The notes under the pieces were generated by a model. That model searched no databases, was not told where the DNA came from, and saw only the letters and a list, made by a program, of their open reading frames with translations. A stretch of 27,186 nt of DNA from a virus (taxonomy: Duplodnaviria; Caudoviricetes). The stretch lies in the IMG/VR virus record IMGVR_UViG_3300037631_002605, positions 1-27,186 of that record; one strand, 5' to 3'. A program made the position numbers and the translations under genes. Shown here piece after piece: positions 14,802 through 25,947 of the stretch. Position 1 is the first letter of the stretch. Every line of letters begins with the position of its first letter.

Positions 14802-14913
14802 CTGTTACCTTTCTTGCCTCCTGCATAGCCTCGGAGAAAGACATCTTGCGAGAACTATTGTTCTGCATCTTGATTGCTTTTCTACGAAGCTTGCGGATCT
14901 CTTGCTTAGACAC
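14779..14913 (-). CDS. Hypothetical basic protein, about 44 aa (MSKQEIRKLRRKAIKMQ...)
   Basis: GTG start overlapping the upstream gene end; fills the gap between two genes. Start position uncertain. Confidence 0.4.
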   Translation of the reverse strand: MSKQEIRKLRRKAIKMQNNSSRKMSFSEAMQEARKVTDEFSTHN

Positions 14914-15157
14914 GACGATGCTTCCGCGTCTTTTCAGCAATACCTTTTGGCTGTTTTGAGAACTGCTTGCCAGCACGACGAGCCGCACGTTTCTTTGCGG
15001 TGGTGCGAGCATACTCTTCATCGCTTAGGCTTTTGATTGCCTTCTCTGGCAAGTAACGTTCACCAGTAGCCTCAGAACCCTGAGTGCTGGGCTTGCCTGA
15101 TTTAGTCCGCCACTTCTGTTTCGTCCAAGCGCGGAGAGATTTTTGCGGGGCTTTCAT
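14906..15157 (-). CDS. DUF5872-like protein, C-terminal part, 83 aa
   Basis: QKSLRAWTKQKWRTKSGKPS...GERYLPEKAIKSLS...TTAKKR...GKQFSKQP pattern recognised from memory of the family. Confidence 0.7.
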   Translation of the reverse strand: MKAPQKSLRAWTKQKWRTKSGKPSTQGSEATGERYLPEKAIKSLSDEEYARTTAKKRAARRAGKQFSKQPKGIAEKTRKHRRV

Positions 15158-15324
15158 TAGCTAGTATAGCCTCCACCACGAGCCTTGTATTCGCGCGCGA
15201 GCATCTGAGCCTTGCGTGCAGACCATTGCCCCGGCGAGCCACCTTTGCCACCGCGCTTAATTTTCTCGAAGAGATTCTTACGCATCCGTGGTTTGGTGTA
15301 GTTGCCAGCTTCATTAACCGCCAT
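15157..15324 (-). CDS. DUF5872-like protein, N-terminal part, 55 aa (not in the ORF track)
   Basis: Manual translation MAVNEAGNYTKPRMRKNLFEKIKRGGKGGSPGQWSARKAQMLAREYKARGGGYTS; TAATG overlap with the next gene. Confidence 0.75.
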   Translation of the reverse strand: MAVNEAGNYTKPRMRKNLFEKIKRGGKGGSPGQWSARKAQMLAREYKARGGGYTS

Positions 15325-15562
15325 TCTCTTCTTCCTTCAACTTACGCAAGGAGGTAGGGGTGTTTTTTGTTTTTACTTTCTGGACGCGCTTCTCCGGCAC
15401 ATGGGCTACTGCCTTTACGCCGCGATCAGCAAGTTCCTCTTCCGTAAAGAGACGAACACTATCAGTGGTAAACGACTTGCCTGAGTGAGGGCGACCATCA
15501 GGAAGAACGAAATAATCTTTGCTGATGTATTCCGAACCATCAATCTTATAAAGCTTGCTCAT
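15314..15562 (-). CDS. Hypothetical protein, 82 aa
   Basis: ATGA overlap with the upstream gene and AAGGA RBS; contains LPDGRPHSGK. Confidence 0.65.
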   Translation of the reverse strand: MSKLYKIDGSEYISKDYFVLPDGRPHSGKSFTTDSVRLFTEEELADRGVKAVAHVPEKRVQKVKTKNTPTSLRKLKEEENGG

Positions 15563-15678
15563 TTACCATATCCTTTCAACATTGATTTCTTTTTCCCCTT
15601 CTTCTTGGCAGCAGCTTTCTTAGCCGCTTTGATGCCAGCAGGGGTGTATGGGTATTTCTTTCCAGCCACGTTAGGCAT
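15559..15678 (-). CDS. Lys/Ala-rich microprotein, 39 aa (not in the ORF track)
   Basis: Manual translation MPNVAGKKYPYTPAGIKAAKKAAAKKKGKKKSMLKGYGK; coupled by TAATG upstream and ATGA downstream. Confidence 0.7.
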   Translation of the reverse strand: MPNVAGKKYPYTPAGIKAAKKAAAKKKGKKKSMLKGYGK

Positions 15679-15959
15679 TACTTGTCGCCTTTTATAAAAG
15701 CGTCTTTTTCATTAAGATCTACAACTCGGCGAACATAACGAAGCATACTTCTATACTTGTCTGTTTTTTCAGGATTTGTTTTTTCTAGTTTTTGAACAGC
15801 ACCATAAGCATGATCAAATATTTGCATAGATCTAACTTTTTTATGTTCCTTATTGTCTTTCAAAAGCTTGGCGTTTAACTTCGCTGCCGAAGAGCCTTCA
15901 TACTTAGACCGTGCATAATTGAACAAACTTTTTGAATCTTTAATATTTTTGAAATCCAT
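15678..15959 (-). CDS. Hypothetical Lys-rich protein, 93 aa, AT-rich gene
   Basis: ORF tiles between neighbours; GGTGA RBS-like sequence upstream. Confidence 0.65.
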   Translation of the reverse strand: MDFKNIKDSKSLFNYARSKYEGSSAAKLNAKLLKDNKEHKKVRSMQIFDHAYGAVQKLEKTNPEKTDKYRSMLRYVRRVVDLNEKDAFIKGDK

Positions 15960-15964
15960 CTAAA

Positions 15965-16246
15965 TCACCATTTAACCTTATTAGCCCAGTATGCCGCAGA
16001 CATCTTGCCTTTGGCAATGTTTTTTCTGTGACGCGCTTTGAAGCTACGCCGCTTTGCTTTCATACGCGCTGACTCTCCAGCCTTCGGCTTGCCAGCAGTA
16101 GAAGCACCCTGCTCACCAAAACGGATAATCTTTTCCTTCCCTCCCTCGCAAGCCTTCACAACGTGCGACTTCTTTGGGTGGCTAGGAGTTCGTTTCGGCT
16201 TATTGCACTTGAGATTCTTAATACCAGCGCGTGTCTTCTTACTCAT
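15965..16246 (-). CDS. Conserved basic phage protein (DUF5754/DUF6321-like), 93 aa
   Basis: KIIRFGEQG...RRSFKARH...SAAYWANKVKW pattern; ATG at 16246 with GGTGA upstream. Confidence 0.7.
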   Translation of the reverse strand: MSKKTRAGIKNLKCNKPKRTPSHPKKSHVVKACEGGKEKIIRFGEQGASTAGKPKAGESARMKAKRRSFKARHRKNIAKGKMSAAYWANKVKW

Positions 16247-16919
16247 CCGCAATCACCATCTGCCCCGTATAGTCTGCGCCATACGGATCAACCCTTACTT
16301 TTTCTGGGATATTCATTTCGCGCGGTAGCCCCGTAGTCCGGTCTGACCCAAAAGGATCAACTTCGGTTGAATACTTTTCGCCCCTATACTCAAACTCTTT
16401 CACGCCAGCCGCATGTTGGCGAGCAAACGCCTGAGTAAATGTAAGGTCATCAAGACTAGCAGAAGGAGTGGTTTCATTAAAAGCAGTCTTCACAGCCTCC
16501 AAAGCATTATCCAAACGCCCGTCTCCGATATAGCCAGTAGGAAGCGTAGGACGTTCCTCAGTCATATCCGGGCGAGACTCAACGATAAATCCAAAGCGTT
16601 CAAAACTAGCAGGGATAGCAAAAGAATACTCAGGGATAGAATCAGATCCAATGAAATATCCACCCTGCTGGTTCTTTACTGCCACGAATGAATTAAAGAA
16701 AGGAGGAAAGGAGGAGGGAGAGGGAAAGTCAATAAGGGCTAGTGGGGCTTCTTCGGCATTGGGGTTTCCAGCAAAGTAACGATCAGCACCCTCTTTCAGA
16801 ATAGCGGATAACTCAAGGGGAATGTTCTCCTCAGAGATATAGCCATCATACATAAAGTTATCCATCGCAGTGTCATACGCCGCTCTAGCAAACTTCTCTT
16901 GATATTCCCTTGAAGGCAT
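16239..16919 (-). CDS. Hypothetical acidic protein, 226 aa
   Basis: AAGGTG RBS; first gene after a predicted promoter. Contains TFTQAFARQHAAGVKEFEYRGEKYST and two VDP(F/Y)G(S/A)DxT repeats. Confidence 0.75.
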   Translation of the reverse strand: MPSREYQEKFARAAYDTAMDNFMYDGYISEENIPLELSAILKEGADRYFAGNPNAEEAPLALIDFPSPSSFPPFFNSFVAVKNQQGGYFIGSDSIPEYSFAIPASFERFGFIVESRPDMTEERPTLPTGYIGDGRLDNALEAVKTAFNETTPSASLDDLTFTQAFARQHAAGVKEFEYRGEKYSTEVDPFGSDRTTGLPREMNIPEKVRVDPYGADYTGQMVIADE

Positions 16920-24101: not shown

Positions 24102-24262
24102 TGTAGGTATGATTTTGGTTCTTCGCCCGACATGATAGCGAACAATTCTTCTGATAGTTCTTCCGCTTCTTCCATATCAACAAGCCCAGAAAACTCCAGC
24201 ACCAACACGGGGAAACCATCATCCCCTTCGACAATAGTCATCTTGAAATCATACTGGTTCAT
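24098..24262 (-). CDS. Small acidic protein, 54 aa (not in the ORF track)
   Basis: Manual translation MNQYDFKMTIVEGDDGFPVLVLEFSGLVDMEEAEELSEELFAIMSGEEPKSYLH; ATGA overlap with the endolysin stop. Confidence 0.7.
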   Translation of the reverse strand: MNQYDFKMTIVEGDDGFPVLVLEFSGLVDMEEAEELSEELFAIMSGEEPKSYLH

Positions 24263-24750
24263 TTAACTAGACCTTGCTGGTAACTGCGACCATTGAACGT
24301 TAGGGCTTGTTTGCGGTTCTGTCCATCACTCTTATACGACACATGCACCCATCCGCTATTAGGTTTCCCGGACTCATAGTGTTCAAGTATCAACTGATCA
24401 TACTCTAGGTTGGCTTGAATCCAAGACGCGACCTTGTGGTTATCGACCCCGATGATTTCAAAGTCAACAGCCTCCCCCTTACAGTGCTGACTGGTTGGCT
24501 TGCTGCCAATCTCTTCGCACAGAAACTCACTGCGGTAGCCGCTTGATACAATCACAGGGGCATTGAACTGGCTGCGCGTAGGCTCAAGGACTGCTTCACA
24601 CAACGCCCGAAGGGAGGAAATGTGTTCCTCTGTTGGGGTGTTGTCGAGGCCTAGCCGGGTCGCGGTTTGGCTCTTGGTCATCTCCTGCAAAGTAAAGTTG
24701 GGTGTGATTCGCCCTTTGGTGGGGGCTGGTTTACCCGCAGGAGTTACTAC
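24259..24750 (-). CDS. Endolysin, peptidase M15 (Zn D-Ala-D-Ala carboxypeptidase-like) domain; start unresolved, possibly reached by -1 frameshift
   Basis: ITPNFTLQEMTKSQTA...SSGYRS...SQHCKGEAVDF (HxxxxxxD)...WVHVS motifs. Confidence 0.88.
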   Translation of the reverse strand, partial: VVTPAGKPAPTKGRITPNFTLQEMTKSQTATRLGLDNTPTEEHISSLRALCEAVLEPTRSQFNAPVIVSSGYRSEFLCEEIGSKPTSQHCKGEAVDFEIIGVDNHKVASWIQANLEYDQLILEHYESGKPNSGWVHVSYKSDGQNRKQALTFNGRSYQQGLVK

Positions 24751-25136
24751 TTTTTTCCGCGCATACTCATCAGTTTGTCTGCACCCTTCACCCCAAACGA
24801 ACTCGTCACGGCGATGAACAGAAGATACTGATACCACTGCGGGAGCGTATCCAACACCGCGAACCCCTCCCGCACTTGCTGGGTAAGCGATGGAATAAAA
24901 ACTAGGATTGCAGGGAGCATCAAAACAACAAGAGCAAACTCATCTTTCCAAGAGCCTTTGGTTGCGTCAGCCATATTGGCTTCCCAATCAATCTTGCCTG
25001 TTGCAATCTTCTTTTGAACGGCAGCGTCAGCCTTTGCCTTTTCGACCTTGACCTCTGCTTTGGCTTTGGTTTCTTGAACCTTGCCATCTACCCAGTTCCC
25101 GGCAATGCCAGCAACCGCACTAAAGATATTCATCAT
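24747..25136 (-). CDS. Holin-like membrane protein (GTA 3TM holin-like), 129 aa
   Basis: Amphipathic N-terminus, coiled coil, SWKDE followed by two hydrophobic segments and a basic C-terminus; directly upstream of the endolysin. Confidence 0.72.
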   Translation of the reverse strand: MMNIFSAVAGIAGNWVDGKVQETKAKAEVKVEKAKADAAVQKKIATGKIDWEANMADATKGSWKDEFALVVLMLPAILVFIPSLTQQVREGFAVLDTLPQWYQYLLFIAVTSSFGVKGADKLMSMRGKK

Positions 25137-25552
25137 CTTCGCTTCCTAACCTTATCCAATGCTTTGCGTATCTGCGTAGCTTCGGGTTCGTCAAAATCTG
25201 TAGCGCGAACAGTTGTCCGCTTTTTTTCTACAGCAGTAATACACTTTATCACGCACCTTCTTATTGGCAAGGCTACGAAACAAACTAAGTCTGCATCTTC
25301 GCTATTAATAATGCGCTTTGATTTGCTTCCCTTGCTGGTCATAAACTTGTAGCGCAATCCACCAGACTGGCTAACGCTGGCAGCTTTTACCTCAACGCGA
25401 TAGCTTTCATTGTCGTCATCAAATATTAGTAAGTCAAAGCCTTCATGATTTACTCGACAGCACTTTAGACCCGTCTCCTCAAAGACAGCTTCGGCTATTA
25501 ACTCTCCTACGCGACCCAGTTGATGTGCATTACGCACAGTCTGATAGCCCAC
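25133..25552 (-). CDS. PD-(D/E)XK endonuclease, 139 aa
   Basis: GRVGELIA...FDLLI...RVEVKA...DLVCFV; GTG start with AAGGA RBS. Confidence 0.75.
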   Translation of the reverse strand: MGYQTVRNAHQLGRVGELIAEAVFEETGLKCCRVNHEGFDLLIFDDDNESYRVEVKAASVSQSGGLRYKFMTSKGSKSKRIINSEDADLVCFVALPIRRCVIKCITAVEKKRTTVRATDFDEPEATQIRKALDKVRKRR

Positions 25553-25780
25553 TTACTTATCCTTTTCTTCTAGCCTGTCTAGTTTATCAAGCCTACGCTG
25601 CGTTGACTGGTTAAAGAAAGTAAAAAGTTGAGTGATTTTGGATTCGCTATCTTTCAAGCGTTCATCCATTCTATCTGTTTTGTTTTCGAGAGAAGATATA
25701 GCCCGGCTAAACCACCAAAGCATAGCCATCGCTGCGGTGAGAATAGGCCAGTAAGCAAGAAGTGTCTCGCCAAAGTTCAC
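25553..25780 (-). CDS. Single-TM coiled-coil protein (lysis accessory?), 75 aa
   Basis: LLAYWPILTAAMAMLWWF TM segment followed by a heptad-rich tail; GTG start with AAGGTGA RBS. Confidence 0.65.
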   Translation of the reverse strand: MNFGETLLAYWPILTAAMAMLWWFSRAISSLENKTDRMDERLKDSESKITQLFTFFNQSTQRRLDKLDRLEEKDK

Positions 25781-25782
25781 GG

Positions 25783-25947
25783 CTAGTCACCTTTGAAAAG
25801 CTTTTGAACCGTGTCAGTTTCCCAGATACGAATGACCCACCAGACCAGTGCAAACAAAGCGGCAACTTCGGGCAGTGCATCAAAGAACGCGCCGAGCGTT
25901 ACGCCGCCGCTTGCAAGGTCAACGGTGGATTTCATTTCGTCTGTCAT
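25783..25947 (-). CDS. Small holin-like membrane protein, 54 aa (not in the ORF track)
   Basis: Manual translation MTDEMKSTVDLASGGVTLGAFFDALPEVAALFALVWWVIRIWETDTVQKLFKGD; ATGA-coupled. Confidence 0.68.
   Translation of the reverse strand: MTDEMKSTVDLASGGVTLGAFFDALPEVAALFALVWWVIRIWETDTVQKLFKGD

Follow-up and report, generated by a model that had tools for sequence, protein, structure and literature searches.

How does a phage produce an endolysin whose reading frame has no start codon ahead of it? The question arises near one end of a linear virus record of 27,186 bases (46% GC, 81% complete), which was analysed over its whole length and is referred to here as the window. Profile matches to terminase, portal, capsid, tail tubes and internal virion proteins identify the gene set as that of a short-tailed phage, and the sequence is present in marine metagenomes. 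Among RNA runs, the share of sequence words present was only 11–14%. On the minus strand, a small membrane protein gene (ORF1) ends shortly before a Peptidase M15 domain that lies in the −1 frame (Table 1). A preliminary description of this locus had proposed that a programmed −1 ribosomal frameshift joins the two into a holin-endolysin fusion.

Table 1 Coordinates of ORF1, the putative frameshift site and neighbouring features in the window
Feature	Position	Strand	Remarks
46-aa acidic ORF	24122..24262	minus	ATGA overlap with the peptidase stop; no family match; context
Peptidase M15 endolysin domain	24259..24699	minus	−1 frame; PF08291, PHROG 894
Predicted 3′ stimulatory stem-loop	24682..24743	minus	Starts 6 nt after the heptamer
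Linker, 17 codons	24700..24750	minus	−1 frame; Pro/Lys/Gly-rich; start predicted disordered
Spacer from slip site to stem, 6 nt	24744..24749	minus	ORF1 stop TAG plus 3 nt
ORF1, 129 aa (129 codons)	24747..25136	minus	Holin-like membrane protein; PHROG 2524
Slippery heptamer A_AAA_AAG	24750..24756	minus	In phase; last two ORF1 codons
PD-(D/E)XK-like nuclease gene	25133..25552	minus	Weak match; upstream of ORF1, context
75-aa membrane protein	25553..25780	minus	Tail helical; weak resemblance to Rz spanin (E 0.009); possibly another lysis gene
50-aa membrane protein	25783..25935	minus	Weak lead to Phage_holin_2_2; possible second or true holin

The 3′ end of ORF1 reads GGA AAA AAG TAG TAA, and the heptamer A_AAA_AAG fits the X_XXY_YYZ phase, as had been claimed from the sequence; of the double stop said to follow it directly, the first codon holds, whereas the second is not conserved in relatives. 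The −1 frame stays free of stops between 24837 and 24259 (minus strand) and does run into a full peptidase, whose match to Peptidase_M15_3 (PF08291) begins at the N-F motif (24699) and scores 67.6 bits against a cut-off of 23.2 (E 1.3e-18). The structural model of this domain has a pLDDT of 89.7 and finds its best fold match in the Zn DD-peptidase 1lbu (E 1.2e-5), while a PDB sequence search with the peptidase gave no match. An Arg, a His-x6-Asp and a later His, which we take to be the zinc and catalytic residues, are invariant in all eight aligned proteins from the group of related junctions described below.

The reported absence of a start codon was borne out: no ATG, GTG or TTG lies between the ORF1 stop and the N-F motif. 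A TTG at 24690 and an ATG at 24681 fall within the Pfam match, and neither shows Shine-Dalgarno pairing (+0.4 and +1.6 kcal/mol); 33 of the 35 tested gene starts in the window pair at −0.9 to −10. Nearly all stand-alone M15 relatives start with an ATG 5–6 codons before the N-F motif, and at the position of their initiator Met the linker of the window has GGG (24714-24712). The upstream GTG at 24837 was rejected as a peptidase start because the −1 frame closes 25–28 nt before the stop in the related loci L025 and L028–L033. As a check on chance, in-phase A_AAA_AAG was counted in 7,512 codons from 35 window ORFs and occurs twice, at the end of ORF1 and in the upstream nuclease gene. This second copy (about 25220-25226, minus strand, inside 25133-25552) is probably fortuitous, since L209 and L646 have other residues at the corresponding positions.

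Relatives were collected by protein-only searches of IMG/VR, which returned 40 distinct contigs with ORF1 and M15 genes adjacent. All 40, drawn from many metagenomes, carry the heptamer in the −1 phase, and two further contigs that stop just past the site have the heptamer as well. A wider census covered 43 distinct ORF1-M15 junctions with the two genes within 100 nt. Heptamer, −1 phase and open linker occur together in 36 of the 43 (hereafter slip junctions), from 15 lineages at 85% identity, a fraction that is not a prevalence because some loci came from patterns containing the heptamer or the stem. Across these slip junctions identity falls to 32% for ORF1 and to 54% for M15. Their linkers vary in sequence and take eight lengths (10, 11, 12, 15, 16, 17, 19 or 20 codons), yet stay stop-free and always in −1. 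Before the two lysines stands Gly, Arg or Leu (GGA, AGA, CTA), with the third-position A always kept. As controls, 215 distinct 3′ ends of the ORF1 family were compiled, 186 of them non-slip. The heptamer is found in only 3 of these 186, and in only 2 of 148 ends with two lysines. A frame-blind DNA pattern gave 47 viral matches, which are relatives and not independent events, all with lengths of 1 mod 3, that is, in the −1 register; two of its three matches in cellular genomes were chance matches out of register.

At the remaining seven of the 43 junctions the genes form conventional pairs, an ATG or GTG lying five codons ahead of the N-F motif. Relatives with a normal start and no slippery site, which the preliminary description had named as evidence against recoding, exist at six of the 43 junctions, but not at the 36; the seventh conventional junction has both a start codon and the heptamer, but its −1 frame is closed. 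Every junction without a start codon has the heptamer. The seven conventional two-gene pairs look like the ancestral state.

At locus L104 (2118-2980), a peptidase 71–81% like those of the window group stands behind an ORF1 homolog only about 32–37% identical, and the nearest sampled relatives of that homolog are without the slip site. This pairing suggests that a module of slip site, stem and enzyme moved onto another holin-like gene.

An arrangement of this kind could also arise from a sequencing or assembly error, or from a fused gene that was recently broken; homopolymer runs are error-prone, and an in-frame fusion does exist in the family (P0076, below). Against this, the same six-A run recurs in all 40 contigs and in the 15 lineages, and the T6/A6 run shows no indel at the site in four independent sequencing runs, judged on contigs and not on raw reads. 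One 5.2-kb contig from another run spans 24268-25200 gap-free and differs by 13 substitutions. A search for in-frame ORF1-M15 fusions found none among 25 longer M15 proteins or among 1,031 longer candidates, the latter obtained with an ORF1 query and counting as weak evidence. Error or recent breakage is effectively refuted.

Beyond the spacer, a closing helix pairs 24743-24737 with 24688-24682 at a pair probability of at least 0.99, and the inner part of the structure varies between relatives. The GCCC/GGGC hairpin pointed out earlier can indeed pair, but it is only the variable tip of this larger stem-loop (24743-24682). The window stem-loop ranks in the most stable 2% of minus-strand windows of its size, and the 80 nt following the site fold with a z of −3.6, against −0.97 for a 101-nt stretch that also takes in upstream sequence. 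RNAalifold, run on 20 junctions, recovered a 10-bp helix 6 nt past the site with 95% of cells paired, compared with 44–53% in slid controls. Four of its pairs have two-sided change, as seen in 0 of 500 shuffles, a test inflated by the relatedness of the junctions. The stem core occurs as four haplotypes, CTCCTG/CAGGAG (25), CTCCCG/CGGGAG (5), CTCTTG/CAAGAG (1) and CTCTCG/CGAGAG (1), each Watson-Crick matched; the retrieval pattern permitted wobble and mismatch cores, but those found were solely Watson-Crick. The stem is common to 33 of the 36 slip junctions, one of them offset by a base, and L034, L035 and L037 have a different, shorter hairpin. Rfam gave no match to E 1. An upstream Shine-Dalgarno stimulator is not conserved, its pairing averaging −2.3 kcal/mol over 29 slip ends and −2.0 over the 186 controls.

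The stem also bears on transcriptional slippage, in which a base added on the A6 run would fuse the frames in part of the mRNA and give the same two products. Transcriptional slippage sites are usually longer than six A, and the run here is only six. The ribosome is indicated instead by the conserved G, by the codon phase and by a 3′ stem whose spacing suits a ribosome, leaving slippage during transcription with very little probability.

In the 36 slip junctions, the codon at the ancestral start is GGG or GGC in 23, another non-start codon in 5 and ATG in 8. The linker is free of ATG, GTG and TTG in 12, including that of the window, and has some such codon in the other 24, so some members of the group can produce free enzyme. 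In L663 and L671 (about 801-880), slip site and stem are accompanied by an ATG inside the loop with a strong Shine-Dalgarno (−7.6 and −8.2); since both the ATG and the strong ribosome-binding site are kept, these phages may also make free enzyme, for a total of three lysis products. L441 and L518 have a plain ATGA overlap, likewise in −1. These loci suggest a route from coupled genes to frameshifting with start loss. In a quick M15 tree the slip label is clustered, and the tree does not establish that the origin was single or in which order the steps occurred.

Translational coupling would account for several of the same features without recoding. The stem would then hide a weak or non-canonical start, such as the ATC at 24708, or ribosomes would reinitiate at the stop, and two separate proteins would be made. 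Consistent with this, the stem begins where a terminating ribosome would unwind it, TAATG and ATGA overlaps are frequent in the family and also create a −1 frame, and the ancestral ATG persists at eight slip junctions. The ATC at 24708 has a short-spaced AAAGGG upstream (−4.2), an isoleucine start has reportedly been found for a lactococcal lysin, and coupling to termination is reportedly the revised account for the MS2 lysis gene. Coupling leaves unexplained, however, why the A_AAA_AAG codon choice is invariant when controls so rarely have it (2 of 148), and why the −1 linker is stop-free across eight lengths. Nor is any alternative start conserved: the stop is overlapped by different codons (GTA, GTG, GCA, GCG, ACA, GAT), and the ATC position varies as well. 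We therefore regard coupling as improbable.

Together, the conserved site, phase and open linker, the covarying 3′ stem, the loss of the start and an in-frame fusion elsewhere in the family support the frameshift first proposed for this locus. Site, phase, linker, missing start, their conservation and the stem covariation are all visible in the sequence, and they make it very probable that a programmed −1 ribosomal frameshift yields both ORF1 (129 aa) and an ORF1-peptidase fusion.

The identity of ORF1 is less direct. It had been called holin-like; it has no Pfam match, and the family that it does match, PHROG 2524 (E 9.5e-30), has function unknown. The protein consists of an N-terminal amphipathic helix, a charged helical stretch, the clear transmembrane helix (residues 67–83), an amphipathic helix, a weaker second hydrophobic helix at about 101–116 and a basic tail ending in two lysines, with 5 K/R and 1 D among the last 16 residues. 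If both helices span the membrane, this tail predicts a cytoplasmic C-terminus, and the enzyme is accordingly predicted on the cytoplasmic side at synthesis. The ORF1 model is of low confidence (pLDDT 53), and a fold search with it returned nothing significant, the top match being labelled holin at E 0.08.

A small membrane protein with a basic C-terminus and endolysin linkage, ORF1 fits the traits of the holin class. Neither ORF1 nor 14 aligned homologs match PF11351 at its cut-off of 24.8 bits, and 3 of 108 further homologs match below it, at 17–18 bits. The ESM neighbour cluster of ORF1 is 40% PF11351, one GenBank homolog is labelled DUF3154, and the Jorvik homolog is a putative holin with an HHpred E of 0.03 to PF11351 (PMC10589892, in part). 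Of 84 non-slip family members, 19 are directly followed by an endolysin (PHROG 7, 315, 894 or 465). Natural in-frame fusions, suggested as a check at the outset, exist to a GH108 endolysin though not to M15: P0076 (337 aa, from Logan) carries a PHROG 2524 domain, a linker of ~45 aa, GH108 and PG_binding_3 in one frame, is 38% identical to ORF1 (E 8e-26) and forms a one-member cluster from 6 contigs. P0076 suggests that members of this family are able to bear an endolysin C-terminally. Indirectly, this evidence points to ORF1 as a putative holin partner, though it is not filed under PF11351. ICP1 TeaA, an experimentally tested holin (PMC7182436, in part), was considered as a tested homolog and rejected, its similarity to ORF1 not being detectable.

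PHROG 2524-like genes (H18–H40) are annotated as hypothetical in Salmonella, Shigella, Klebsiella and Dickeya phages (about 150–160 kb) and in pelagiphages, and are holin candidates there.

The frameshift could also be real while ORF1 serves as a membrane anchor, an export adaptor or a virion-associated membrane protein, with the 50-aa ORF upstream as the holin. ORF1 has no holin annotation in Pfam or PHROG and no detectable relationship to TeaA, separate small membrane ORFs do lie upstream, and 65 of the 84 non-slip homologs have no endolysin directly after them. The 50-aa ORF (25783-25935) has an ESM score of 0.87 to a neighbour cluster that is 26% Phage_holin_2_2. Such a role for ORF1 seems to us unlikely, though clearly less so than coupling, given the sub-cut-off PF11351 matches, the ESM cluster, the DUF3154 label, the Jorvik annotation and the ties of the family, by linkage or fusion, to four endolysin families. 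A spanin of the outer-membrane lipoprotein type was not recognised.

With ORF1 as the holin partner and the frameshift as its link to the enzyme, lysis could proceed as follows; the slip itself, its efficiency, the holin action of ORF1 and the delivery of the enzyme are what we infer. Ribosomes at the two terminal lysine codons of ORF1 would pause at the stem-loop 6 nt downstream, where both lysine tRNAs on AAA AAG could re-pair on AAA AAA, slip back one base and continue. A single start codon would give two products, ORF1 of 14.1 kDa and a 292-aa fusion of 32.1 kDa, and, as with lambda G and GT, the N-terminal part common to both would let them assemble together in the inner membrane. Held at the cytoplasmic face by its basic, unstructured linker, the enzyme would wait for the holin lesion to open or the C-terminus to flip out before cutting the peptidoglycan at that lesion. 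How often ribosomes slip would set the ratio of enzyme to holin. In the lineage of the window, endolysin would come from the fusion alone; apart from an internal virion protein, no second lytic enzyme was recognised in the 40 ORFs scanned in this 81%-complete record.

On balance we lean towards such recoding-based lysis, in which the endolysin exists only as the frameshift extension of the holin, and a minority or tuned share of the subunits carries the enzyme into the lesion. We hold jointly with it, and at the same modest strength, an evolutionary path that would lead from an ATGA-coupled pair, through a slip site combined with an ATG and ribosome-binding site (three products), to loss of the start (two products), in-frame fusion being the end state elsewhere in the family.

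The closest cultured capsid is that of Pelagibacter phage Hodr (52.6%), and the closest cultured ORF1 homologs belong to SAR116 phage HMO-2011 (46%) and Roseobacter phage CRP-902 (43%). Our guess is that the host is an alphaproteobacterium. A host derived from a MAG was not accepted: the one true cellular match of the frame-blind pattern is a phage-like contig in an Opitutae bin (L646), which has the same slip cassette (~140 nt long), a resolvase and a methylase, and an early-gene set unlike that of the window. A run of short, very basic ORFs adjoins the terminase at window positions 14906-16252 (PHROG 14910 and 7595, function unknown), and ORFs like these often come after ORF1 homologs in other marine phages.

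If the lysis reading is true, tethering an endolysin to its membrane partner by frameshifting is a new way to set lysis stoichiometry, and bears directly on the proposal that a holin can take a folded enzyme through the membrane attached to its own C-terminus. Slip efficiency, acting through the supply or modification of host lysine tRNA, could then tie lysis timing to host physiology. PHROG 2524, widespread and unannotated in SAR116, Roseobacter, Pelagibacter, Vibrio, Salmonella and Klebsiella phages, would gain a lysis role. Gene callers mis-start these endolysins.

In phages, frameshifts have been described chiefly in tail chaperone and structural genes, and holins and endolysins are as a rule made as separate proteins. 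Shearman 1994 is said to concern an in-frame overlapping gene with an isoleucine start, not a fusion. That work is cited where lysins are listed among genes known to contain a frameshift (PMC10885494, in part). A literature search found no paper on a frameshifted holin-endolysin, its scope being outside most subscription journals and frameshift-survey supplements; the words holin and endolysin are absent from the searched text of the frameshift review PMC5009743, and holin and lysin from PMC3711429.

Several known systems resemble parts of this arrangement. Expression of the MS2 lysis gene was once ascribed to frameshifting in an upstream gene; it was later reportedly ascribed to termination-coupled initiation, and its product is a separate protein, not a fusion. 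In the TpeE family of Clostridium sporogenes, an endolysin is likewise carried on the holin C-terminus, and flipping of that C-terminus has been proposed; unlike the window, this in-frame fusion is hard-wired at 1:1, with no recoding and no free holin, and involves a single-helix holin of another family in a Gram-positive host (PMC9527704, in part). GTA_holin_3TM (PF11351; R. capsulatus rcc00556, ICP1 TeaA) is like ORF1 in size and layout, with a weak profile and language-model resemblance. ORF1 stays below the curated cut-off, however, and these holins are encoded separately from their endolysins. As regards the three transmembrane helices of this family, ORF1 has one clear helix, one weak helix and an amphipathic N-terminus (model pLDDT 53).

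Similar in mechanism is lambda G/GT, where a slip close to the short gene's 3′ end gives a short and a C-terminally extended product at a set ratio (PMC5009743, in part). As in lambda, the extension would reach the same complex by way of the N-terminal part that both products have in common. The window differs in that the site lies in the lysis module of a short-tailed phage, the extension is an enzyme, and the signal is A_AAA_AAG with a strong covarying 3′ stem. Set ratios range from 30:1 for G:GT to near 1:1 for the DnaX products, and the shiftiness of A_AAA_AAG with a single lysine tRNA has been described (PMC5009743, in part).

The heptamer and the 3′ stem-loop stimulator are shared with E. 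coli dnaX and IS3-family elements (PMC5009743, PMC4066793, both in part). The marks of dnaX/IS3-type sites are likewise present here: an in-phase heptamer, a conserved 3′ structure and an open, conserved −1 frame without a conserved start of its own. In contrast to these elements, the window group does not conserve an upstream Shine-Dalgarno and has the 0-frame stop directly after the site, and the −1 product is the long one in the window but the shorter one in dnaX. The feature is real and likely a programmed −1 frameshift, which puts a known recoding mechanism to a new use.
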